Shown here piece by piece: positions 2,573-42,528 of a DNA stretch of 64,000 nt (the first letter of the stretch is position 1; each line of letters starts with the position of its first letter). The position numbers and the translations under genes were made by a program. Source of the DNA: a virus (lineage: Duplodnaviria > Caudoviricetes); IMG/VR virus record IMGVR_UViG_3300029305_003259, positions 32,001-96,000 of that record, one strand, 5' to 3'. Below the pieces are notes generated by a model, which was not told the origin of the DNA, searched no databases, and saw nothing but the letters and a program-made list of their open reading frames with translations.

Positions 2573-3755
2573 TTTATTTAAAACTCGTATGTCGAATCAA
2601 GGTCAGATTCAGGCGAATGCATATTTGCAAAATGCAGATATTGCGATAGATAAAACATTTACTCGTGATCCTGCTTATAGAGAAGTTTATTTAACACATA
2701 TGCCAAGTGGTATTGAGTTGCAGAAGATGGATGCTAAATTCATTATTGATACTAGACGTTCATTGGCTAGTGACGAAGAGGTTTATAAACTTATGTTTAG
2801 GCCTCATGTTAAAGTGCCTCTTGGTTCTTATGTTGATATACCAGATGATGAAGGTAATTTGCAGAGATGGCTTATTATTCTTAATGACCATCAGCCGCAA
2901 TTCCATATGTATTATATCTTGAAGTGCAATTGGATATTGAAGTGGATTCATGAAGGAAAAGTGTATAAGTGTGAATGTGTACAAAGAACACAGTCATCGT
3001 ACAATAGCGGATTGTGGACTGACTACAACTTTACCAGTGTTGAGAACCAAACTATTATGTGGTTACCAACAACACCTTATACACAAACACTTAGTTATAA
3101 TCAACGTGTTCTTATCAATGATGAGGGCCGACATATTCCAATTGCATGGGAACTTTCCAAAGTTCTCGATACCATCCCAATTGGTATTACAAGACTTACT
3201 TTTAAGCAGGTTCAAGCCGACTTGCATACAGACTGCGGCAAATATGGCATAGCGAATTTCTGTAATAGCGGAGATTGTGCTAACTGCGCAATTGCCGAAC
3301 CTGTTTACATTGATGCAGGTCTCCAAATGCCGACTCCAGAACCACGCAAAGGACGCATTACATATAATGGCAAAGATTTAACTCTGCGTGTTGGCGGTAG
3401 CGCTAAAACTTTTACCGCAGAATATTGGGATGAGGAATTTATTCCATATAATGCATTTTGGACAATTTCTCTAGTAGATGGAGAAAATACATTATGTTCT
3501 ATCAATGCTCATTATGATGGCGTTTGGAATGTCGAGGCTGCTTCAAGTGGTTTTGACATGGATACAATAAATGGCGATGTTAGATGTTTTATTGAAAACA
3601 AAGATATTTTTAAGATTAAATTAATTGCATCTGGTGATTCAATGAAATTAAGCTGTGGCCAGTTGTATAGTATGGTAGGTAAGAATATTATTCTTGCTGC
3701 CAAAGATGAAAATGGGGAAAATGAAGCCGAAATTTCTGCGGAGGTGATTAGCTAA
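2553..3755 (+). CDS. Putative head-closure/neck protein with C-terminal Ig-like extension
   Basis: 400 aa; N-terminal half (G.YV..., ILKCNW.LKW, QRVLI...W.LSK.....GI..LT.KQ) resembles neck proteins of large Bacillota siphoviruses; synteny. Confidence 0.5.
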   Translation: MVILMLDLFKTRMSNQGQIQANAYLQNADIAIDKTFTRDPAYREVYLTHMPSGIELQKMDAKFIIDTRRSLASDEEVYKLMFRPHVKVPLGSYVDIPDDEGNLQRWLIILNDHQPQFHMYYILKCNWILKWIHEGKVYKCECVQRTQSSYNSGLWTDYNFTSVENQTIMWLPTTPYTQTLSYNQRVLINDEGRHIPIAWELSKVLDTIPIGITRLTFKQVQADLHTDCGKYGIANFCNSGDCANCAIAEPVYIDAGLQMPTPEPRKGRITYNGKDLTLRVGGSAKTFTAEYWDEEFIPYNAFWTISLVDGENTLCSINAHYDGVWNVEAASSGFDMDTINGDVRCFIENKDIFKIKLIASGDSMKLSCGQLYSMVGKNIILAAKDENGENEAEISAEVIS

Positions 3756-23021: not shown

Positions 23022-23771
23022 ATGAATGAGAAGCAATTAAGAGACAAGCTGGTAAAGAAGGCGGTTTCTTACTTGGGCACTAAGGCAGGCAGTGCTAGAC
23101 ATAAGAATATTGTTGATACTTATAATAAAATTGTCCCACTGCCAGCTGGCTATAAGGTAAAATATACAGATCCTTGGTGCGCCACATTCGTATCATTTTG
23201 TGCTTCTGTTTGTGATATGTTAGATATCATTCCAGCAGAATGTGGATGCTCCAGACAAATTGAGCTATGGCAAAAATTGGGCAGATGGCAAGAAAGGGAT
23301 TCCTATGTGCCTCAAACTGGCGACATTATATATTTCGACTGGGACGATTCTGGTAAGGGCGACAACACTGGTTGGTCTGACCATGTAGGAATTGTTGTAT
23401 CTGTATCTGGTGGAAAAATTAAGACTATTGAGGGAAACAAAAGTAATGCAGTAGGATATAGAACTATTGCGGTTGATGGCAAATATATTCGAGGATATGG
23501 TTTGCCAGACTTTGCCTCAAAGTCAACAGAAGACACTAAGATGGACACATGCAATGTTGAATTAAATGTTCTCGCAAAAGGATGTAAGGGCGACAGCGTA
23601 AAGGCCTTGCAGATTTTGCTCAAAGGCTATGGATATTCTATTGGTAGTAGCGGCGTAGATGGAAGTTTTGGGCCTTCTACTTTGTCTGCTGTAAAGAAAT
23701 ATCAAAAAGATAAGGGATTATCTGTTGATGGGTCTGTTGGCCCAGCCACATGGAAATCATTACTTGGATAA
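23022..23771 (+). CDS. Endolysin: CHAP domain + peptidoglycan-binding domain
   Basis: WCATFVS (catalytic Cys), DHVGIV (His), IEGN; C-terminal G.SVK.LQ.LL...VDG.FG..T..AV..YQ...GL.VDG.VG..TW. Confidence 0.9.
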   Translation: MNEKQLRDKLVKKAVSYLGTKAGSARHKNIVDTYNKIVPLPAGYKVKYTDPWCATFVSFCASVCDMLDIIPAECGCSRQIELWQKLGRWQERDSYVPQTGDIIYFDWDDSGKGDNTGWSDHVGIVVSVSGGKIKTIEGNKSNAVGYRTIAVDGKYIRGYGLPDFASKSTEDTKMDTCNVELNVLAKGCKGDSVKALQILLKGYGYSIGSSGVDGSFGPSTLSAVKKYQKDKGLSVDGSVGPATWKSLLG

Positions 23772-26044: not shown

Positions 26045-26701
26045 TTGATTATGACAAAAATTTATCTTTCACCAAGTTCACAGCCTGAGAATAAATATGC
26101 TTATGGGAACACAGATGAACAAACGCAATGCAGAAAAATTGCAAATGCATGTGAAAAGGCGTTGAAAAGATGTGGATTTGAAGTTAGGAACGGGCAAACT
26201 GGTGATCATATAAGTAGAACTAAGGAATCTAATGCTTGGAAGGCTGATTTACATGTTGCAATTCATACGAATGCTTTTAATGGTTTGGTTAGAGGAACAA
26301 GGATGTTCTATTTTAATGAAACCGGAAATAGCTATAAAGCGTGTAAAGCAATTTATGATATTTTATCTAAAAATAGTCCAGGAACAAGTGATAATATGAC
26401 AAGGAATCAGAATTTGTACGAGGTTTATTATACTAATTGTTCTCCAGTTTATATAGAGGTAGCGTTCCATGATAATGAATATGATGCTAAATGGATTGTA
26501 CAAAATACAGTTCAAATCGGAGAGTGGATTGCTCATGGAATTTGTAATTACTATGGAGTTAAATATATTACATCTGGTACAAATTCTGTTTCTAAAACAT
26601 ATCAAGTTGTTTGTGGTTCATTTGGAGTAAAAACGAATGCGGAAAAGAGAAAACAAGATCTTGCTAAAGCAGGTTTTGATTCATTTATACAAGTTAAATA
26701 G
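26045..26701 (+). CDS. Endolysin: N-acetylmuramoyl-L-alanine amidase (Amidase_3) + SPOR-like domain
   Basis: E...L...GF.V, R...SN...ADL..AIHTNA, YIEVAFHDN; C-terminal YQV.CGSF..K.NAE....L...GFDSFI. Confidence 0.85.
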   Translation: MIMTKIYLSPSSQPENKYAYGNTDEQTQCRKIANACEKALKRCGFEVRNGQTGDHISRTKESNAWKADLHVAIHTNAFNGLVRGTRMFYFNETGNSYKACKAIYDILSKNSPGTSDNMTRNQNLYEVYYTNCSPVYIEVAFHDNEYDAKWIVQNTVQIGEWIAHGICNYYGVKYITSGTNSVSKTYQVVCGSFGVKTNAEKRKQDLAKAGFDSFIQVK

Positions 26702-26727: not shown

Positions 26728-27228
26728 TTGGAGGGATTTAAATTGAAGATATTATCATTTGATCAAAGCACCACTAGATCAGGATATGCCATATTCATAA
26801 ACGGTAAATATGACCATAGTGGCGTTATAGATAAACATACAATAAAAGATTCAGAAGCTAGATTCAAGGAAATGTATGAAGGCATACATGATTTGATAGT
26901 TACAGAAAAACCAAATATTGTAGTTTTGGAAAATACCCAAGCACAGGGAAATAATATGGCAGTGTTTAGATTGTTGTGTCAATTACAAGGTGCAATCATG
27001 GGCATGTGTTATGCAAGAGGAATTAGATTTTGCGTGCTGGCTCCAACAATGTGGAGGCGAATTTTGCAATTTTCACAAGGGCCAAAGATAAAAAGAGAAG
27101 AACTTAAGCGGCAGAGTATGGAATATGCTAAGAGATTTAATATTGAGGACTCAGAAGATAGAGCCGAGGCAGCATGTATTGGGGCTGCTTACATTATAAA
27201 TAATGCCGAAGGCATAGATATAGAATAA
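26728..27228 (+). CDS. RuvC-like Holliday junction resolvase
   Basis: ILSFDQS...SGYA, VVLE, P..WR, ED.AEA..IG acidic motifs of the RuvC fold; likely start TTG ~26743. Confidence 0.8.
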   Translation: MEGFKLKILSFDQSTTRSGYAIFINGKYDHSGVIDKHTIKDSEARFKEMYEGIHDLIVTEKPNIVVLENTQAQGNNMAVFRLLCQLQGAIMGMCYARGIRFCVLAPTMWRRILQFSQGPKIKREELKRQSMEYAKRFNIEDSEDRAEAACIGAAYIINNAEGIDIE

Positions 27229-28386: not shown

Positions 28387-31300
28387 TTGAGAGAGTTTAA
28401 ATTTAGAATAACCACAGATATATCCGACCTTGAAGCACAATTTAAGGGCGGTGCAGATGCTCTGGCTAAAATGGCCAAAGCAGCTGGTCAGGCGGAAAAT
28501 AAATTAGATTTTTTAAAAGAAACAGGAACATATTTAGATCAAATTGATGCCGCACTTAGCGAATTAAAGACAAAATACCCAGATTTGTTTAATAAAATAT
28601 TTAATAATGTTGATAAACAGATAAAAGATGCTATCGCTCCAATTAAACAAATGACAAAAGAAATGGACACATTGTTTGCGCATGTTGGTGCGCAGCTACA
28701 AGGAATGTCAAGTGGTAAATTAGATGGTAGTAGAAAAGAAATTAATCAAATAATTGTTGGCATGAAGGCTCTTGCCAATGCATTAAATGTAAAGATTGAT
28801 TTTAAAGTTTTTGAAGATATGGTTAACAACGGAGATGAAGCAAAGGTCATAGCAAATTCTATGATTGGCAGCCTTGAAAAGATTGCTAGTGCATATACTG
28901 ACATTGGCAAAACATCTTTAGAAGCTTCAAAATCTATAGATAGTATTGGTAAAAATAAAACTATAAAGGACGCTGCCGAAGATGCCAAAACTCTTAATGC
29001 GGAGTTAAAAAATACCAAAAAGGCTGCTAAAGAAGCAAAAAAAGAAGTAGAGACTCCTGTAAAGCAAAAAGATAGTGGTTCTAAGCCACAGAACGCAATG
29101 AGTTATGACGATTTGCTGAAAGCTGTAAATAAAGCCAAAGATTTATCAAAAAAAATAGATGATGGCGATGATAGTGCGTTTGATAAAATGGACTCGCTTT
29201 TAGGCTCTTTGCAGAAAAAATTCAAGCTTAATGAAGATGGCGTTGCTAGATTTGAAGAGGCAATGCAAGATTTAGATATAACCACAGAAGAAACAATGCG
29301 AAAATTGCAGACTATACTTGGTGATAAATTTCCATCTGCAATCCAAGAAAGCAAAGAGGAAGTCAAAGAATTAACCAACGCTATAAATTCTGCGGATAAA
29401 GATTTAAACAATGTAAGCGTTGCTGAGGCTAATGCAAAAGCAACAGAAGAAGCGGCGGACGCTGCGCGAAGAATTGCCGATGAAACAGAAAGGGCTAAAA
29501 ATGCTGCCTTAAAATTAGACGAAGCATTAAAAGGAGCTGGAAAAAGAACAGAGGGCGCAATTCTTTACGATTCACAGACAGGAGCATATGGTGATGCTAT
29601 AAAAGGTGAAGACCATCAGGTAAAAATACCAACTTCTGATGGTAAAAAATATGATACAGAAATGCATACTCACCCTTGGGATTTTGCCGCTCCATCTGTC
29701 GAAGATTTTGATGTATGGATTAACAATTTCGATGAATTTAAAAAGTTTGCAATTCGTGCAAATAAAGAAATATTATCTATTGATTTTTCATCCATTGATG
29801 CTGATGGTTTAAAAAACATTAGAGACCAATATGCTGTAGCAGTTCAAAAGATAGAAGAAGAATTTGGTCAATATGCAACGGATATTAACGCGATGAATGG
29901 AAAATTTGGATCATATGATGGATGGCAAAATGCAGCACAACAAGCTATGCAAAATGCTCTGAAGAATATGCTTGATCCAAAAATGTTTTCAACTATCGAT
30001 TTCCAAAAAGTTGTCGAACAATCAGGGTCTACAAAGGCAACAGTGCCTCTATCTGAACAATATGCTGGAGCAAGTGAAGAGGTTAAAAGATTAGTTAATG
30101 AACTTGCAAAGCTTGACGATCTTGATGAAACAGACGAGATTGCTGCAAAGTGGAACCATTTAGCAGAAATTGCCCCAAATATTTATAAATCAATGCGCGG
30201 AGATGCATGGGAGAATTTAAAACAAGACATTCTTTCTAATACTTCTGCTGTTGAAAATTTAGGAGAAGAAATAGATGAGGCATTAACGCTAGAAACTGGT
30301 AATCTTGAGTCAAAATTGGAGAGACTAAAGGATCTTGCCGATGAATATGGCATGCAGATTACTCAGCGAGATCGTAATACTTTAGAATTTTTAATCGACC
30401 AGGATAATGAGAAAGAATTGACTGGCGCAAAAGCAGACAGACTTTCTGAATTGCAAGACAAAATTGATGCGGCAGATGATGCGTTAATTGCATTTGAAGA
30501 ACAATACGATAAAATAATTCTAAAACTTGAAAATGGCAAAAAGGTAGAAATTCTACCTAATGATAAAGGCCTTCGTGATTTATATAAATTCATGGATGAA
30601 GGCGACGGAAGAACTTTTAATGGTATTGATGTTGCCGATGTTGAATACGTCCGAGCAGAACAGTTTGTAAGAACACAAATTGAGTCATATGAAGAATTAT
30701 GTAAAGTTGTCGAAAGATATAATGAATTGCGTCATAAAAAGGACAGAACTTCAAAAGAAAACATTGAATTTCAATCACTTCTTGACCGTATTAGAGCAAC
30801 TGAGCCAGAAAACGGCATAACAAGTCCAGATTACGATAAACGATTAATAGAATTTACTAGAATATTTAAAGAGTGGCTTTTAAATACGGATTCTCTTGCA
30901 AAATATCTTGGCATTGAAATTCCGCAAGCAGCAGTGATTGCTGAATCTGCGGTTGAAAATCTTGGACAAGAAATTAAGGAATCTTTATCTCCAGAAGCCG
31001 TAGACTCTAAGTCTGTTATGAAACAATTCCAAGATATTTGGAAACTGAAAAACGACTTAAAATATGACCTTAATTATAATGCAAAATATATTGGCGATGA
31101 TGCTGCAGTAAGCGAAGCAAAACAACAAGTTGCCGAATATGATGAAAGACTAAAACAACTTGCCGTATCTTATGTTAGCCTTGGTGGCGCAGTTGATGAT
31201 TTTAAATCTAAGGAAAAACGTGAGTTTGCAGCGGATGTTGTTAACAATTTAAACGAGCAAAATCAGCAGGCAGAAAGTCAACTCGAAGAAACAAATCAAA

Positions 31301-34300
31301 AGTTAAGAGAGCAAGAAGATCTTTATCAACAGGTTCGCACTGCAATTAAAGGCACTTTAGAAGAAGTTGTAGGTATGGATTATACCGCAGTTGCTCTTGA
31401 AGACATCGAAAGAGAAATCAAAGATGGTCTAATTACTACTCTTGAAGAAGCCATTATTCGTTTTAAAGAAATGAATAATATAGCCGACGATGTTCGTATT
31501 GCCGCTGTAGGTGAATATCAACGTGTAGCTGATAGCTGGGATTATTATCAAGGAAATAGATATGTTGATGAAGATAATGAAACCGTTGTTAATAAAAACG
31601 AATATGACTCTTTAAAGCAAAAATCATCAGGTGAAGATATTGGACAAGAGTATAAAGATTTAGAAGCTTTACGTAAAAAGGTTGAAGAAGTAGAAGCTGC
31701 TATTATAAATAAAACATTAGCGTTTCATCAAGAGGCGGACGCTGTAGAGGTTAATGTAAGAGATGAAATTGATAGGCTCGAGTTGCTGCGTATTGCAATT
31801 ACTCAAGTGGAACAAGCAATCAAAGATAAAACTGCAGCATTCTATAAAGAACGTGATGCGGTTGAGTTCAATGTTGAAGACGAAATATATCAACTTGAAA
31901 AGCTACGCAAGAAGCTTGAAGAGGTTGCTGGACAGGTACAATTAGTTGGCAAAATTAATTTGGGCGCCGATGGTTCAGGAGAAATAAATTCTCATATGCT
32001 GACTGATCCACAGGGAAACATCGTAGAGGGATTTAGAGGTCTGCATGGATCTTATGGCGGACTCACTTCTAGTAGGCCGGATGGTGCTACATTTTTTACA
32101 GATAATATAGATGTTGCCAGGTCTTACGCTGGAATTAATGGTAAAATTGAAAAATCTAACTTTTCAATGCGCAATCCATTTGAAATAGACGCAAATGGGG
32201 CCTTTTATGATGAAATTGAATATTTAGGCAATGGCGCAGACGAAGCAAGTAATAAAGTTATAGATTTAACTAATGCAATCATAGGGTTGGAATTTAGGTT
32301 ACAATCATTAGATGAATACGATTTACATTCAGATGATCTTCAAAATGAAATTAAAAAAATAAACGAAGAAATAGAATCTTTATTGATTGAGCGTCAAAAA
32401 ATATTTAATGATAAATCAAACCCTTATGGGATCTATTCTACAGATGAATTAGTTGATTTGGCAAAGTCTAAAGGACATGACGGTATGGTAATAAAAAATC
32501 TTCGCGATGTCGTTGATGATGGTCGTACCGATCCTATTCCGTCTACGATAATTGTTACTTTTGATGATAGTCAGATACAATACCTTGAAACAATTGCTAG
32601 TTTTGAAAATGGCAACAATAATATTTCCACTCCTCTTGAAGGCGAAGACCTTAAAGGCGAACAACTTGGCATGGATCTCGATGCCGCCGTACAAGATGCT
32701 AAAGAGTTAGCTGCGGCTGAAGAAAAGGTTGAGGCCGCAGTAGAGCAAATAAATGATACACTTGATGAACAAATATATAAAAGGAAGCAATTGCTTGAAG
32801 CATCGGATACACAAAAATATGTAGACCTTTTGAATGAGCGTAGTAAAAATCTTCCAAAAGATTCTATTGGTTATGGACATAAAGAAAAGATTGAAACCGT
32901 AGCTAATAGCAATATGCTAAAAATTTTTAATTCTTTAAAAAAACAAAATGGTTCTATGAGTTTTATTGGGGATAGCGATGAAACTCGAATTAGGTTATCT
33001 TCAATAAAAGAAATGTTGGAACAAATAGGTTATACTCTTTCTGAACCAGTATTTAATAAAAAGAACGGCTTATTATCTACTCAAATTATACCTATAGATG
33101 GCCAAGCCGTAACAGATTTAGAGAAAGCTAATCAAATTCTAAAAGATATTTTTATAAATAATACTAGAACATTTCAAAGTGCAGATGAACTTACTGCTGA
33201 GGCACAAAAGGCAAATGAGCGTGTGATAGCAGAAGAAAAGGCCGAAGCAGCCGTAGAACAAACTAATGATGCTCTTGATGAACAGATTGCTAAAGAATCT
33301 GAATTAATTAAACAAAAAGGAACATTAAATTTCTTAGAAAATGAAGCAAAAGAACATTCTAAGATTGCTAGTACCAAGTGGTCTGATGATCAAAAAGAAG
33401 CATATGAACAGCTTATAGCTAAGATTCAGGAATATAAGAAGTCTAAGAGCAAGTTAACAGATGAAGAGCTAAATAGCATTAGAAAGATCGTAAATGGGTA
33501 TAAGATTCAGGCGCAAACCATTATTAATGCACAGGAATCCGCAGAAAAGCGCTCTAAGGCGTTTGGATTAAAGGAGCTTAATAAGGCTACTGGTAGTAAA
33601 AATAATCTCGAAGCATTAGGTAGAGGGTTTGATTCTAAGACCGTAAAAGATGGGCTCGAGAGCGTTCGTCATGCATATACGGCTTTGGTTGAAGCTCAAC
33701 AGAAGTTCAATGATGGTCATGAGCCTACCGAAGATGAGAGAATTGCGTACCAGCAATTAACAAATGAATATAATCAGGCTGCGAAAGCTCTTGATACTTT
33801 ATTTAAGGCATCAAAAAAGATGTCTGAGAATAGTCGTTGGTCTGTTGATATTGACCAATCAGAATTAGACAATCTTGAGAAGTCAATGCAGAAGGCTATT
33901 CAAGCATCCGAAAATGGTAGAGTAAAGTTTGGACAGTTTAATGCTGAAACTGGACAACTTGAATATTCTGTTCGTAGAGCAAATGGTACTTGGGATCATT
34001 TTACTGCTCAGGTCGATCAAGCTGGAATGGCCGTCGTTGGTCTGAATGGCAAGATTAAGACGACCAATGGAATAATCAGAGAATTTACTGCTGGTGTTGC
34101 CACTAAGTTCAAGAATGCTATGCAAGTATTCTCAGGTTATGACCTATTCTTTGAAGCCGTAGCACAAGTAAAGCAAGGTATTCAGTATGTAAGAGATATT
34201 GATACGGCTTTAACGGAACTTAAAAAGGTAACTAATGAAACAGATGAAGCATATGCACAATTTTTGCAGACTGCTTCTAAGACGGCTGGAGTCGTTGGTA

Positions 34301-37300
34301 GTACTGTAAAAGATATTACTACAATGACTGCCGATTGGGCAAGACTCGGATATTCTATGCAAGAAGCTTCTTCTCTTGCAGAAAGTACCGCTGTCTTATT
34401 AAATGTTTCAGAGTTCACTGATGCGACAGATGCATCAGAGGCACTAATTAGTACCATCCAGGCATATGGATATGCTGCTGATGAGAGTGGCATTGTTGTC
34501 GATACATTAAACGAGGTAGGTAACAATTTTGCCGTATCGAGCGATGGATTAGCGACAGCATTACAAACATCTGCAAGCGCTCTAATGTCTGCAGGCAACG
34601 ACCTGAACCAATCAGTCGCACTCGTTGCCGCAGCTAACAAGGTTCTACAAGACCCATCTCAAGCAGGCGCAGCTCTCCGTACTATTGCTCTACGTATCCG
34701 AGGAACTTCACTTAAAGTTCTCGAAGAAATGGGCGAAGAAACTGACGGCGTAATTGAAAGCGTCAGTAAGCTACAAGAAAAAGTTAAAGCAATCAGTGGA
34801 GTAGATATCCTTGATGATACTGGCGCATATCGTGATACATATGATGTACTTAAAGATTTAGCAGAAGTCTGGGAAGAAATAGGTCAAAAGGATCCTCGTG
34901 GACAGGCTGCGCTTCTCGAACTATTAGCCGGTAAGAACAGATCAAATGCTCTTGCAGCAATTCTAACAAACTTAGATGACTTAGAGGGTGCATATGATGC
35001 CGCATTACAGGCAGAAGGTTCTGCACAAAAAGAGTTAAATACTTATTTGGATTCTATTGAAGGGCGAGTATCAATATTCACAAATTCAGTCCAAACAATG
35101 TGGATGAATGCTATGAATACTGAGGCAATAAAATGGTTTGTAGATAAAGGCACGCAGCTTGTGCAAATATTTGATGCCATTAACCAAAATAATCCTATTG
35201 GTATTTTTGGTGGACTAGCTACTGTTGGAGGACTTTTATTTGGCGCATGGAAAGGAATACCAGCTCTATGGACTGCCGTTGGAGCAGCATCTAAAGCAAA
35301 AATTGCTGGCATAGTTGGCGAAACTGCAGCAATTCAAGAATTAAACGTACAACAAGGAATTGCTAATCTAAATGCATCAACCGCAATTACTTCTGACATA
35401 AAACAAGCAGCAATGTCTGCTATTTTGACAGGGGAAACAGGCAAGGAAACAATTGCAACAAATCTTAATACTAAAGCTGCAATTTTAAATGCTTTAGAGA
35501 AAAAAGGAATAGTTGGTGCTGATGCAGAAGCGATACTTTCTGCTTTTGGGCTATCGGCCGCAAATACTACTCTGACTGGCACGTTTACCATATTAACGGC
35601 ATCTGTTAAAAAATTATGGGCAGCATTTTTAGCAAGTCCACTTATGCCCATTGTTGCCGGTCTTGCAGTATTAGGAGCCAGCTTATGGGCAATAGATGCA
35701 GCAACCACGTCTTTCAAGGAAGCCAAAGAACAATTGGAAGAAACTTCTGAAGAATTAAATAATGTTCAGGAAAACATTAAATCTTTAAATCAAGAACTAG
35801 AAACAACAAAGAATCGTATCGATGAATTGTCTAAAAAAGATGATCTTACTTTCTTGGAAAAGGAAGAGCTCAAAAATCTAAAAACATACAATGCTGAGCT
35901 TGACCGTCAAATTGCTCTGGAAGAACAAAGAAAGAAAATTCTTGAAAGACAACAGATTTCCGATGCTCTTGAAACATTCAAAAAAGATGACTCTTTTAAA
36001 AAGATTACTTATTCTGAAACTGATGAAAATGGCGTTATAACCGGAGTAGTCAATGAGTTGGCCCCAGAAGTAGACCGCAAACTAGAAGACATAAAAGAGG
36101 CACAACAAGGTCTAGAAACTGCAAGAGCCGAACTTGAGTCTGCAAATGAAAAATATTTATCTAATGATGATAAAGAATCTAAGAAGGCCGTAGAAAAGGC
36201 ACAAAAGAGCGTTGATGAGTATACGGATATTATTAGAGAATCTGAAAATGATATTAATGAAATTTTAGCAGAACGCGCAGAAACGTATGGAAATCTTGAA
36301 TGGCAATTTGGAGATCCCGATCAATTAACTAATGATCAAAAAGAATTAAATGCATTTTTAAAACAAATGTATGATGATTCAGATAGATTTGCTATATCTA
36401 TGGATAGTACGGGGAAAGCTCTGGAAGCGGCATTTTCTCGTGTATCTGGTCAAACTGAATTCAATGATAACTTAAAAGATATTCAAGCAAATGTTGGAAT
36501 TACAGGCGAGCAACTTCTTGAGATGTGGGAGAATGCTACCCCTGAAACTGAAGACCCGTATGGTTTACGTGCATTTATTCAGAATCTAATTGACGCTGGA
36601 GTTATTGCTGATACTTCTGCTGAATCTATGCAGAAGGTTGTCGATATGTCCATCATGTTAAGCGATGGAACCAGTGAGATGGAGCGTGCAAACAAGAAAC
36701 TTGCTCGTTCTCAGAAGAGACTTGAATATTATAATCTAGCAAAAAAATTAAATAGTTATACGGATGGAATTGAAGATTTAACCGATGCACAAAAAGATGA
36801 GATTTCTCAAATCAGAACCAAAATGAGTGCGTTGGCCGTAGAGATCGATGCTTATGATATTCTTGGTGCTAAGATTTCCGAAGTCAAACAATCTTTTGAG
36901 GAGTTCTCTCAGGCACAAGAGGCCGATACTGCAAGTGACTTTACCGATGACATTTCAACAATGCTTCAAACAATCGTTGAGGGTTATCAAAGTGCGGAAA
37001 TGGGCTCTGAAGCATTTAAGTCTGCATTTACATCATTAATTCCAGATAGTGTATATGAAGACATTGATACTCTTCAAGGAAAATATGAAGCTGCTGCAGC
37101 ATATATTAGAGACACTTTAAGTGATTACTTCAAGATAGAATATGATGACGATGGCTTAATTAGCAGCATTGAAGTAACCACTAAAAACATTCAGAACTTT
37201 ATCGAAGATGCCAAGGCCAAGGGCCTAATGAATTTCGCCAATGGTGTTTGGCAAGTAAATGAAACCGACTTTGAAACATTTGCTGAGAAGATGGGCATTA

Positions 37301-40300
37301 CTGAGGAAATGCTCGTTGCTCTTGGTGAACAAATGGATAAAGTTGATGCTGACTGGATAACCGGAGACCTTACCAGCTTCTTTGACTCGTTTGAGATGGG
37401 CACTGAAGCAGAAATTTATAAAAATGTTCAGGCTTTGGCTGCTCTAGATGGTCAACTTATTGATGGCGAAATTACACTTGATGAATATACTGCGGCATAC
37501 AAAGAATATACGAGTGCAATAGAATCAAATACAGATGATGCAATTGCAAATATTCAAAAGTATAATGACGCAACCATAAATGTTGATGATATTACTGCGC
37601 AATTAGATGAGGCTCAGAAAAAGTTAAGCGAATTAACATCGAATCCAAATGCCGATGAAGCAGAGATACAAATTCAAACAACAGAAGTAGATAATTTAAT
37701 AACTAAACTAGGCGAGGCAATTCAGGAAAAGGGTAAACTTACAGCTCCTAGTTTAATTGAAATTCAATTTGCTCAAGATTCGATTGATACACAAATAGCC
37801 GGCGTACAGCGGCAACTGATTGATGCGAATATTTCCTTCCCGGCAATGATAGACGGAAAATTAAATCTAGAAGAAAATGGCTCAATCATTGAAAAGGATG
37901 GTAAATATGTAGTCAATACTGAGCTGGAAGGTTTGGAAGAATCTGAGCTTGCGTTATTACAAGAATATGCAGATCTTGCGAATACTCAAGGTGTCATTAA
38001 TGTTTATGTGAAATCTTCCGAAGATACCCAAAAGAAAGTCGATGATTTAAAGAAAACTGCGGAAGATACTCAAAAAATTCTAGAAAATCTATCCGTTGAA
38101 GTTGAAGCTGCTCAAGCAATTTCAACTTTGAAAGAAATAAAAACATTAGCTGATTCTCTCAAAGATAAAGAAATTAATGTAACAACATATACTGAAACCG
38201 TTGATAAAGGTACAAGAAAAGAAACATTTTGGGAAAAATTATGGCCATTTGCAAAAGGCACTGCTTATTCAGATGGCAACTGGGGAGCTGGAGTAAGTAC
38301 TAATAAAGCTCTTGTTGGAGAACTAGGCCCAGAGTTGCGTGTACGTAATGGTAAGTACGAACTTATTGGAGAAAATGGCGCTGAATTTACCGACGTAAGA
38401 CCTAATGACATAATCTTTAACCATAAGCAAACTGAAGAAATTTTAAAGAATGGCCATATTAGTTCTCGCGGCAAAGCTTATGTTGAAGGTAAAGCATTTG
38501 CAGGGACTAGCGGAACTATGTATACTGGCGGCGCAATTGCATCTCAATTTGGCGGCGAAGTTCCGAATTGGTTCCCTCGTAATAGTACATTACAAAATCT
38601 TGGGCATATTGTTGAAGATGCATCTAAGGATGCCAAAGATGAATTTGATGAAATTATTGATTGGTTCGAAATCCTAACAGAAGAAATTGAGCATCAAATC
38701 TCTGTTATGGAAGCTCAACTTGATAATGCGGTTGGCGTTCAAGAAAAGTCAGGCATTTATGCAGGTCTTGCAGTCCTTGAAAAGAATAAAATGTCTGCAT
38801 TTACAAAGGGGATCGACTTATATACTAAAGAAGCAAATAGATTCTTAAGTCAAATTCCTGATAAGTATAAAGCTATGGCTAAAGATGGTAGCGTTGCGAT
38901 TACAGAATTTGTTGGAGAAGCTAATGAATCTACTGTAGAAGCAATCAACAACTATCGTGAGTATGCAAGCAAAGTAGATGATTTACAACTTCAATTAATA
39001 GAGACAGAGACTCGCATTTCTAACCTCAGAGTAGAAAAGTTGCAAATGATTTCTGAGGAATATGAAAATCAAATTAGTCTTGTAGAACATCTAAATAGCA
39101 AAATCCAATCCCAGATTGACTTGCTAGAGGAACAAGGTGAACGAGTATCCAAGCATTATTATGAAGCCATGATTAAGAATACTGAGAACCAAATTAATCT
39201 TATGAAGGCTCAGAAAAATGCAATGCAGGCGGAGCTTAATAGTGCTGTATCTAGCGGAGATGTTGAATACGGTTCAACTGATTGGTATGAGATGCAAGGC
39301 GCTATTAATGATGTTGAGACTAGTATTCTTGATGCAACGGTCAGTATTGAATCTTTCAATAACGCTATTCGTGACCTACACTGGCAAGAATTTGACCGCA
39401 TTGTTGAAGCCGTATCTAATCTAGCAGATGAATCAGCAAACCTTCGTGAACTTCTTGGTGAAGATTCCGACATGGTTGATGAACTTGGCGAGTGGACTGC
39501 CGAAGGCGTTACTTCTATCGGTCTATTGGCCCAAGAGATGGAAAATGCTGAGTATCGTGCAAAACTATATGCCGATGAAATTAAATGGCTAAATGAGAAC
39601 TGGAAAAAAGAAGGCTATAGTTTAGATGAGTACAACGAGAAACTACAAGAATTAAAAGATGGTCAATGGGATTCTATCGAAGCATATGAAGCCGCAAAAG
39701 ATGCTATTCTTGACCTCAATGAAGTTCGTGTCGATGCAATCAAGGAAGGTATCCAGAAAGAAATTGATGCCTATGAAGAACTAATTGAAAAGCAAAAAGA
39801 ATCTTTACAGGCACGCAAAGACGAACATGATTGGGCCAATACCATTGAAGAGCATACAGATGAAATAGGTTCTATCCAACGTCGTATCGATGCGCTTAAT
39901 GGTGACACATCTGCATCCGCTGCAGCACAGCGCAAACAACTGCAAGAAGAATTAGCTGAAGCAGAAGAAAAACTAAGAGAAACTTACTATGACCATGAAA
40001 TTGAAACTCAGCAAGAAGCTCTTGATAAAGAACTTGAAATGTATCGTGAGAATAAAGAGGATGAGATGGCAACATGGGACGAGTATCTCACTCACGAACA
40101 ACAAGTGCTTCTCGATAGCTTTAATACTGTTAAGACAAATACGGAATTAATTCATAGTACAATTCTTGATACTGCTACAAGATATGGTATTGAAATTACA
40201 AAGAATATCACCGAGCCTTGGAAGCAAGGTCAAAATGCCGTAGCGTCTTATAGTACTGATTTTGACAACGCAACGAGTCATTATATCTCTCAACTTGGTC

Positions 40301-41022
40301 TTGTTAAGCAAAATCTTATTGATTTGCAGACTCAGGCAGATGCGACTGCAAAAGCATTAGCTGCTGCACTTAATCAAAAATCAAATTATGTTCCAAGTGC
40401 TACGCCTTCTGCGCCAGCTGGGAACAATAAGCCTTCTAGCAATACTGGAAGTCAACCAGCCAATTCCTCAAAATCAGGAACCGAAAATTACACGGTTAAA
40501 TCTGGAGATAACCTTTGGAATATTGCTAAAAAAGAACTGGGAGACGGCACTAGATGGAAAGAAATTTATGATTTGAATAAAGATAAAATTAGTAATCCTA
40601 ATCTTATTTATAAAGATCAGAAATTAGAAATTCCAAAATATGCAAAGGGCACTACAGGTGTTAAGACTGATGAGTTAGCATGGATTGATGAAAACGGGCT
40701 AGAAGAAATTGTTATGCATGCTCAGGGTGGTAAGCTTTCTTATTTAACCAAGGGTAGCGCCGTTATTCCTCATGATATTAGCGAAAATCTAATTGAATTA
40801 GGAAAAGTTGATCCGAAGACTTGGATAGATAAGAATAGGCCCAATACTACTCCTGCCAATATTATTGCCCAAAATAATAATATTGAACTTAGTGTTGGGA
40901 AACTAATTCATATTGAACATGCAGATAAGGATTCTATCCCAGAGATTCAAGCTGCTGTTCAGAAACAACTGGACTCTTATATGAAAAACTTAAATGCCGG
41001 TATAAAGAAATATGCTAGATAA
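28387..41022 (+). CDS. Giant tape measure protein (4211 aa) with N-terminal JAB and ART-like domains, TP901-type TMP core, hydrophobic segments and LysM
   Basis: [13 protein letters not shown]...[11 protein letters not shown]...G.ALRTI..R core at ~34190-35100; hydrophobic stretches ~35190-35700; Lys[13 protein letters not shown]...NPNLIY..QKL.IP at ~40489-40635; followed by Dit/Tal. Confidence 0.92.
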
Positions 41023-41067: not shown

Positions 41068-42528
41068 TTGATGGCTGTATACCAAAAAAAGTTTATGTTA
41101 AATAATCGTAGTAATACCGATTTTGGACTTATTGTTTGCGCAATTTCTCCAGATGATGGTGAAACCGATAGTTACTTAACTGTCGAGTCTGTATATACGG
41201 AAAGTTTTGACGGAAGCAGAAGACATGATTATGGTGCAAAATATACGGAAACAGCAGTTCTATATATTACAATGCTGAAAAATAATTATGCAGATTTTAC
41301 TAAAAAAGAATTAAGAGAAACTTTAGACTGGTTAACCGGATTGCGCAAAGTATCATGGTTAGATTTGTATAATGATGATAGTGGCGAAATATCATTTTCA
41401 TTTCTTGGCCGTGTAACCGATGTTAAGTTGCAAAAATTAGATGCCAGAGTAGTGGGACTGAATGTTGAATTTACATCTGTTAGTCCATGGGCATATTCAG
41501 GTATTAATCACAATGAAATGTCATTGGACGGGAATGCCACAAGATACTCAATTTGCAATGGTTCGGATGAAATAGGTGTTTATGTATATCCAAATGTTAC
41601 TTTCATTAATAAAATTGCAAATGGAACTTTAAAAATTATGAATTATACAACTGGAGAAGAGACTATTCTTCGTAATTTGGGAATGAATGAAGTTGTTAAG
41701 TTAGACAGTAATAAGACAATTTATTCAGATAAGCCAATGAAAATTTTTGGCGATGACTTTAATTTTAATTGGTTAAGATTCGCACAGGGATATAATCATA
41801 TAGAGATTACCGGTATAGGACATCTTACTATTGAACACAGAGATATTATGAAGGTTGCGGATGCATTTGATGATAACTGGGATATGAATACAAATCCTGC
41901 GGCAATGAATTTATTATTGCGTACTAAGGTAGATCTGCCAGCATCAAATTGGACTTATGTTAATACCGCACCTGGCGTTATTACTACGTATTCTCAGCCA
42001 GTAAATTATTTGAATGTTACAAGCAATTCTATGATTAATCTTCAGGCAAATGAACAACAAACACTGGACTTACAGGCTTCCGATATAGAAATCCAAATAG
42101 TGAATGACAATGGTGATGTTACCGCTTTTGCATATGGCGGAGCACCAGTAATAGACTATGTCTTTCAGGCCACTATAGAAGAGACAAATGTAGATATATC
42201 TCATCGTTATGATATCGTTCATTTATATGCTAACGGATGGACTGGTCAGGGGAGCGTATATACGCAACCAGTTTATATTAAAGATATGACTAAGAATTCC
42301 ATCATTGATTTAGATTTGTCCGATGTACAAATTGCAAAACTTGAAGGTTCAGAAACAACTTTATTAGTAACTAATGATAATGGTACTGCCATTGCTTATG
42401 CTTTAGGATTTAAACCCGATGAAGATTATCATGTCAATGTCATTATTACAGAAACAACAGACGATGTAGCTTTGGCTAGAGCCGCATTGGACGATGGACT
42501 AATTTATGCTGAACCATTACCATTTTAA
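41068..42528 (+). CDS. Distal tail protein (Dit) with two extra C-terminal beta repeats
   Basis: First gene after TMP; S.DFGL.V, WL, F...SPWAY, FNFNWLR...GYN.I motifs. Confidence 0.7.
   Translation: MMAVYQKKFMLNNRSNTDFGLIVCAISPDDGETDSYLTVESVYTESFDGSRRHDYGAKYTETAVLYITMLKNNYADFTKKELRETLDWLTGLRKVSWLDLYNDDSGEISFSFLGRVTDVKLQKLDARVVGLNVEFTSVSPWAYSGINHNEMSLDGNATRYSICNGSDEIGVYVYPNVTFINKIANGTLKIMNYTTGEETILRNLGMNEVVKLDSNKTIYSDKPMKIFGDDFNFNWLRFAQGYNHIEITGIGHLTIEHRDIMKVADAFDDNWDMNTNPAAMNLLLRTKVDLPASNWTYVNTAPGVITTYSQPVNYLNVTSNSMINLQANEQQTLDLQASDIEIQIVNDNGDVTAFAYGGAPVIDYVFQATIEETNVDISHRYDIVHLYANGWTGQGSVYTQPVYIKDMTKNSIIDLDLSDVQIAKLEGSETTLLVTNDNGTAIAYALGFKPDEDYHVNVIITETTDDVALARAALDDGLIYAEPLPF

Follow-up and report, generated by a model that had tools for sequence, protein, structure and literature searches.

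An Arg-type ADP-ribosyltransferase domain, sister to the ART-PolyVal family, predicted in the N-terminal extension of a phage tape measure protein

The stretch of DNA considered here (hereafter the window) comprises 64,000 nucleotides, positions 32,001 to 96,000 of IMGVR_UViG_3300029305_003259, a 128-kb IMG/VR viral record (Caudoviricetes) that is ~78% complete. In it, a single uninterrupted open reading frame (ORF) of 4211 amino acids (aa), located at 28387-41022 on the + strand, encodes a tape measure protein (TMP), a protein with the core domain, the position in the tail module and the hydrophobic segment of such proteins. The recognisable core, a match to PF10145 (PhageMin_Tail), is preceded by an N-terminal extension of ~1900 aa which holds an ADP-ribosyltransferase (ART) domain and a JAMM motif, its remaining parts giving no above-threshold Pfam match. 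The ART domain, aa 1203-1404, is the subject of this work, and it is almost certainly a folded ART from a separate, Arg-type clade that is sister to the ART-PolyVal (N4-ART / Tox-ART-HYD2) family. The initial annotation, made from the sequence alone, had placed an ART-PolyVal-type domain inside the TMP at 31990-32590; the limits obtained here, 31993-32598, lie a few bases away, and the ART motifs it quoted all occur, in order, within aa 1202-1401. The parts of the gene that concern the domain are as follows.

28387-41022, + strand: TMP gene (P0001), a single ORF with matches to PF10145 (73.8 bits), LysM (40 bits) and phrog_4211, "tail length tape measure protein" (E 3e-88)
31993-32229, + strand: N-terminal half of the predicted ART domain, aa 1203-1281, from the AlphaFold2 model and alignments, with TDPQG, strand 1 (F-R-G-L), strand 2 (T-F-F-T-D), a helix to Y1247, and strands 3-4 with N1263-P
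32035-32040, + strand: codons of R1217-G1218, the strand-1 position that corresponds to H-G in canonical ART-PolyVal members (hhalign and alignment A2)
32230-32427, + strand: predicted alpha-helical hairpin insert of 66 aa (aa 1282-1347), from the model helices and the 65-residue gap against canonical members, with the conserved base motifs DEAS and SNPYG
32428-32598, + strand: C-terminal half of the predicted ART domain, aa 1348-1404, with a helix, a strand and the last two strands (AlphaFold2 model)
32479-32508, + strand: D1365 through D1374, two near-invariant Asp flanking the fifth strand (alignments and codon check)
34294-34908, + strand: recognisable TMP core PF10145, aa 1970-2174, ~570 aa downstream of the ART

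The assignment to the ART-PolyVal family is, in terms of Pfam, borderline. The corresponding model (PF18760) matches aa 1190-1410, searched alone, with an E value of 3.8e-7 and 31.4 bits (gathering score, 31.2); a longer piece scores 30.5 bits and no match is reported for the full-length protein. This alignment spans profile positions 30-131 only, so that strand 1 goes unrecognised by the Pfam model. Profile-profile comparison with hhalign, on the other side, set the Arg-type profile A4 (12 close relatives) against the profile A5 (12 canonical His-type members) with 99.7% probability, E 3.8e-27 and 140 aligned columns, placing the Arg opposite the invariant His (consensus mYRGi vs vyHGt). An exhaustive phmmer search of 1.84 billion cluster representatives (clusters defined at 50% identity) returned 122 related ones, 54 of them at E<=1e-10, and nearly all sit in proteins of 1500-5000 aa. 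Three short relatives (P0065, P0066 and P0091) comfortably exceed the ART-PolyVal threshold, with 44-57 bits, and in a further homologue, the giant P0124, the automatic annotation lists PF18760 and PF10145 together. Furthermore, the domain forms an island in composition, the summed fraction of E, K, Q, A and L being 0.28 in the ART stretch vs 0.36-0.54 in 200-aa blocks elsewhere in the TMP, where the LysM block (0.35) and the 3201-3400 block (0.36) come nearest.

As for the distribution of these relatives, none was found from a cultured phage, either in the GenBank phage records or in the cluster look-ups, and tblastn of the ART domain against 50,697 GenBank phage records gave no match. A single-protein search of viral contigs for related loci returned no relative, and neither did a search for proteins of near-equal length, because all the relatives are giant proteins. 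The genome matches are distant ones, all of them in metagenome-assembled genomes of gut Clostridia (Lachnospiraceae, Oscillospiraceae, Christensenella and Eubacterium).

An AlphaFold2 model built from a 50-sequence alignment reached a predicted local distance difference test score (pLDDT) of 90.6 and a predicted template modelling score (pTM) of 0.85; the single-sequence model was uninformative (pLDDT 44). In the numbering of the domain, to which 1189 is added to obtain that of the protein, the modelled elements run as listed here.

Domain residues 25-31: strand 1, with F-R28-G29-L
Domain residues 46-49: strand 2, T-F47-F-T, followed by D50
Domain residues 52-59: helix that ends in Y58
Domain residues 63-71: strand 3
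Domain residues 76-79: strand 4, preceded by N74-P75
Domain residues 97-119 and 127-151: the two arms of the helical hairpin
Domain residues 163-172: helix
Domain residues 177-184: fifth strand, with G174-H-D176-G177 before it, N182 within it and D185 after it
Domain residues 196-202 and 208-215: last two strands (E196-202 and E208-215 in the model)

The aromatic residue of strand 2 is thus F1236 in the protein. When the model was compared by Foldseek with BFVD, a collection of predicted viral structures, 45 matches were obtained at E<=1e-3, many of them named ART-PolyVal-like domain-containing protein, PolyVal ADP-Ribosyltransferase or N4-like roseophage virion RNA polymerase, the latter being the prototype context of the ART-PolyVal family. 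Foldseek against the PDB gave nothing at E<=1e-3. Its top row, 9k3a_B (E 1.5e-2, probability 0.82), comes from the pre-ejectosome of cyanophage A4, a podophage, and is one of its internal proteins that are ejected, a match that may rest on the helical hairpin only. The hairpin also dominates the VIA structure lists, of which only the rows covering model residues 11-221 are informative; the PDB matches that span this globular part, with 111-123 residues aligned, are all ART-superfamily proteins, namely MbcT (Z 8.0, 117-118 aligned), ParT (7.8), PARP2 (7.8-8.0), NatT (7.6) and PARP1 (7.6). Among PDB sequences, both phmmer of the domain and hmmsearch of the profile A3 gave noise only, and there is consequently no residue-level alignment to a solved ART. 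Taking alignments and model together, the predicted ART fold, with its split beta-sheet, and the ART-PolyVal kinship of aa 1203-1404 can be regarded as established.

The domain is set apart by its residue in strand 1. ART-PolyVal has been described as an H-Y-D family whose His, Tyr and Asp lie in strands 1, 2 and 5, respectively, and has been assigned to the Tox-ART-HYD2 clade, with PARPs and diphtheria-type toxins as relatives (PMC5512222). The initial annotation had read R rather than H at the first catalytic position, and R1217 does align with the invariant His, both in hhalign and in alignment A2, where all 39 Arg-type sequences have R at position 28 and all 11 His-type ones have H. These two groups share a core formed by G29, A55, Y58, N74, P75, G82, A170, G174, D176, G177, N182 and D185, and position 28 is the sole core position fixed differently in them; other positions conserved in the Arg type alone (G44, I88 and G92) are merely variable in the His type. 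The residue after the strand-1 Gly differs as well: the His type has Ser/Thr there, the Arg type mostly Val/Ile/Leu, and the resulting motifs match those tabulated for two large ART clades, i.e., H-G-S/T in PARPs and R-G-V in the ecto-ARTs of the R-S-E clade (PMC7955679).

Across 96 domain copies, 78 carry R and 9 carry H at position 28. The copies found in proteins with TMP-core similarity all have Arg (57/57), all nine His copies belong to proteins without it, and in every TMP-core protein the ART lies N-terminal of the core. This TMP count is an underestimate, as phmmer missed P0002. The latter, of 4074 aa, has PF10145 at aa 2479-2689 and two tandem Arg-type ARTs (aa 1143-1362 and 1615-1829), each with a hairpin insert. 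Other residues are similarly constrained: Y58 (Y1247) never varies in A3 and is kept in 90/96 copies, the remaining six having Phe, D176 and N182 are each kept in 86/96 and D185 in 95/96, and both near-invariant Asp of the family are present in the TMP of the window (D1365 and D1374, equivalent to D176 and D185). A quick maximum-likelihood tree, short and weakly resolved, puts the His forms on one side, with an Arg pair (P0074 and P0093) nested among them. Since the Arg is conserved across the clade and all the other core residues are kept, the alignments indicate a change and not decay: the Arg is a feature of the clade and no lesion. A lone, decayed, pseudogene-like copy was considered and discarded for the same conservation across the whole clade. 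With R1217 in the place of the invariant His, the domain is therefore filed as an Arg-type sister variant and not as a canonical member. Altogether, this pattern demonstrates a strong residue-specific constraint on a folded ART-family domain located in the N-terminal extension of the TMPs of uncultured phages.

One subclade departs from it. Its members (P0063, P0068, P0069, P0075, P0077 and P0088) have Y-R-A instead of Y-R-G and Lys/Leu at D176, and keep the Asp of N-x-x-D; to judge from these residues they look degenerate, possibly inactivated or re-purposed. With regard to the catalytic Glu, range mapping of the structural alignments sets model residue 220 opposite PARP1 residue 1009, which locates the equivalent of Glu988 near S197/T198, before the penultimate strand. 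At this spot the aligned members of either type show no conserved acid. The initial annotation was thus right that a Glu is missing before the last strand, but this does not set the present copy apart, since its absence is normal for an H-Y-D family, and the case it made for an atypical enzyme or a decoy is left with the Arg as its one argument. The coiled-coil insert it had marked corresponds in the model to the helical hairpin (domain residues 97-151), which appears in hhalign as a 65-residue gap opposite the canonical members and is, accordingly, an insertion. In the Arg type it exceeds 25 aa in 67/78 copies (52-124 aa where present) and is absent in 11 homologues.

Other features of the TMP, and the gene that follows it, are listed next.

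29665-29709, + strand: JAMM motif H-x-H-x7-S-x2-D, aa 427-440, an exact match in the same N-terminal extension as the ART
35614-35709, + strand: aa 2410-2441, a segment of strong hydrophobicity (Kyte-Doolittle scan, peak 1.95) that may insert into the membrane
40489-40635, + strand: cell-wall-binding LysM domain (Pfam, 40 bits) at aa 4035-4083, close to the C-terminus
41068-42528, + strand: next gene, a phage tail protein with DUF6558 N- and C-terminal domains

Downstream of the DUF6558 tail protein there are genes for a minor tail protein, for a protein resembling a fibre and for a DUF859 siphovirus protein. Upstream of the TMP gene, the structural block includes two separate endolysin-like genes (23022-23771 and 26045-26701, + strand), and a RuvC-like Holliday junction resolvase gene (26728-27228, + strand; phrog_159, E 1e-14) stands in the tail module, two genes ahead of the TMP. 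Within the TMP itself, the region that follows the ART (aa ~1440-1620, window 32700-33250) looks globular and is bracketed by the repeated helical spacer EEK.EAAVEQ.ND.LDEQI; it gave no Pfam match and has one homologue only among the ART-bearing proteins, and it may be a further cargo domain. The JAMM motif has in this TMP the exact form H-T-H-x7-S-x2-D, and H-x-H-x(6-8)-S-x2-D is found upstream of the ART in ~9 homologous giants (P0006, P0010, P0012, P0018, P0031, P0033, P0074 and P0124, among others), so the JAB-plus-ART pairing recurs. Delivery of the ART along with the JAB peptidase domain at DNA entry, as the initial annotation had suggested, may reasonably be inferred.

What would such a domain do in a tail? 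The reading that we favour, with somewhat better than even confidence, is that of an effector using nicotinamide adenine dinucleotide (NAD+) that is ejected with the TMP and acts on the host at the onset of infection. The TMP occupies the tail tube and has to come out ahead of the genome (PMC12617516), and ARTs of the ART-PolyVal family have been predicted to be virion-delivered effectors that enter with the DNA (PMC5512222; PMC9503650). By exiting the tail first, the TMP would bring the domain to the host at the earliest moment of infection, and it probably carries the enzyme into the cell. Read from the C-terminus, the chain presents LysM, the hydrophobic segment and finally the enzymes of the N-terminal extension, an order that would meet wall, membrane and cytoplasm in turn. 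In the phages lambda, T5 and SPP1, the C-terminus of the TMP is at the tail tip, an orientation that this order assumes here. Proteolysis might first cut the domain free. As to the chemistry, R-G-[VIL] has replaced H-G-[ST], and the stacking Tyr (Y1247), the N-P turn, G-x-D-G (D1365) and N-x-x-D (N1371 and D1374) are all present; the domain would still bind NAD+, with the Arg taking the contact of the His as in ARTs of the R-S-E type. It would then ADP-ribosylate a host macromolecule, most likely a protein, favouring the take-over of the cell or disarming its defence.

Several points weigh against this proposal. Of the H-Y-D triad, the strand-1 His is missing, its place being taken by R1217, and the position equivalent to Glu988 of PARP1 is Ser/Thr here, as located by range mapping only. 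The subclade devoid of D176 indicates that not all of these residues are needed for the fold to be maintained. No biochemical data were found in the literature for ART-PolyVal members, and none for the Arg type. On the side of delivery, it is not obvious how three to six copies of a folded domain of ~200 aa would be housed in the lumen of a tail tube. No TMP is known to bring an enzyme into the cytoplasm, and the enzymatic modules described in TMPs are peptidoglycan hydrolases (PMC12617516).

The most serious of the alternatives is a pseudo-enzyme, in which the ART fold would have lost catalysis and serve as a binder of NAD+ or ADP-ribose (e.g., as a sponge for a defence signal derived from NAD+), or else provide the very long TMP with a spacer or structural part. 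The replaced His, the lack of an acid at the PARP-Glu988 position, the large hairpin inserted and the persistence of the fold in the D176-less subclade all agree with it. Nonetheless, the same residue recurs in 78 copies and is coupled to the change from G-[ST] to G-[VIL], which reproduces the motif of active R-S-E ARTs, and the other pocket-type residues remain constrained at 30-45% overall identity, while pseudo-enzymes as a rule shed them one by one; we consider a pseudo-enzyme unlikely on these grounds. The structural neighbours raise another option, an NADase or NAD+ phosphorylase in the manner of the RES toxin MbcT, which would deplete or reshape the NAD+ pool of the host at entry. MbcT (Z 8.0) and NatT (Z 7.6) are among the best solved neighbours over the whole globular part, and these RES toxins presumably carry an Arg in strand 1. 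However, their Z scores are tied with those of PARP1/2 (7.6-8.0), the structure search being non-discriminating in this respect, there is no RES sequence similarity (no Pfam RES match at E<=1), and the few molecules in each virion are a poor fit for bulk depletion of NAD+. The sequence homology is clearly with ART-PolyVal, related by its describers to protein-modifying ARTs (PMC5512222), and an NAD+ consumer of this kind seems decidedly improbable.

Lower still we rank a role on the phage itself or outside the cytoplasm, in which the domain would modify, as particles assemble, either proteins of the virion or the end of the phage DNA, or else would work in the cell envelope. TMPs are made late and assembled in the producing cell, where NAD+ is available, and DNA-modifying ARTs such as DarT exist (cited in PMC9503650); but the locus shows no sign of a system for self-modification, NAD+ is confined to the cytoplasm, and the other contexts of the family (MuF fusions, the N4 virion RNA polymerase and polyvalent proteins) all point to delivery into a recipient cell, which makes this option very hard to hold. 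Lastly, the helical flanks and a Pfam score right at the threshold could suggest a chance similarity within low-complexity, coiled-coil sequence. The profile-profile E value of 3.8e-27, the confident model with its many ART-PolyVal matches, and the 122 homologous clusters with conservation at the level of motifs ruled it out, and its likelihood is negligible.

The ART-PolyVal family and the idea of virion-delivered ARTs are already known. In the searchable literature, no description was found of an ART inside a TMP, of the Arg-type clade or of its hairpin insert, and the enzymatic modules of TMPs found so far are all wall-degrading. An NAD+-dependent domain in a TMP implies that part of this protein reaches the cytoplasm in a functional state and, if true, phage tails would join heads and conjugation systems in the concept of co-injected effectors in "polyvalent proteins". 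The ART domain is also common, with its 122 clusters coming mostly from TMP-like giants of gut metagenomes, and is a well-defined candidate for a host-modifying activity of the immediate-early kind among the phages of gut Clostridia, all of which are uncultured. Moreover, the clean switch from His to Arg, in which each of the other conserved residues is kept, amounts to a natural experiment in the tuning of NAD+ binding by ARTs through the residue in strand 1. A bolder extension would be that of "polyvalent tape measures", in which the TMPs of gut Clostridia phages would be modular effector vehicles, with enzymes acting in the cytoplasm housed in their N-terminal extensions, and an H-Y-D ART would have independently repeated the His-to-Arg switch by which the two great ART clades differ, gaining a new substrate or chemistry (e.g., against NAD+-dependent defence) and a target-recognising hairpin; this is speculative and, in our judgement, doubtful.

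How does the domain compare with known systems? Its closest counterparts are the ART-PolyVal domains themselves (Iyer et al. 2017, PMC5512222), to which it is homologous by hidden Markov model, profile-profile comparison and predicted structure, with the same order of motifs: x-G in strand 1, FFTD, A..Y, NP, G-x-D-G-hhh-x-N-x-x-D, h-h-V-x-F and Q-I. In both cases a virion protein of very large size holds the domain next to one of peptidase type, implying delivery with the DNA. The differences are the R-G-[VIL] of strand 1 instead of H-G-[ST], the 66-aa hairpin insert and the carrier, which is a TMP here and a head/MuF protein, the N4 virion RNA polymerase or a conjugation protein there. With the virion ARTs of the R-S-E type (T4 Alt and the Alt/VIP2 family) the domain shares an Arg-Gly-aliphatic strand 1; those ARTs are carried in the virion and act when infection starts, and the role proposed here would be analogous. 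Unlike them, it lacks S-T-S in strand 2 and [QE]-x-E before strand 5 and has no detectable sequence homology to them; besides, T4 Alt travels in the head and not in the tail lumen. Membership of the R-S-E clade was considered and rejected, as only the Arg (R-G-L) fits, strand 2 reading T-F-F-T-D and the segment before the penultimate strand P-S-T (motifs per PMC7955679).

PARP (H-Y-E), MbcT, NatT and ParT have the same ART fold, with Z 7.6-8.0 over 111-123 residues. The spacing from F-F-T-D to Y1247 also equals what we take to be that from Y-F-A-D to Tyr907 in PARP1. Identity to PARP, RES and ParT proteins is nevertheless 8-15%, and the domain has neither a Glu at the Glu988 position nor a helical regulatory domain or an antitoxin partner. 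Finally, the TMPs with embedded enzymes (the Rpf-like motif of TM4, Pb2 of T5 and the muramidase TMPs of staphylococcal phages) offer an architectural precedent, an enzymatic module inside the TMP that is released on ejection. Those modules degrade the peptidoglycan in the wall, whereas the ART described here would need NAD+ and, for this reason, would have to act in the cytoplasm.

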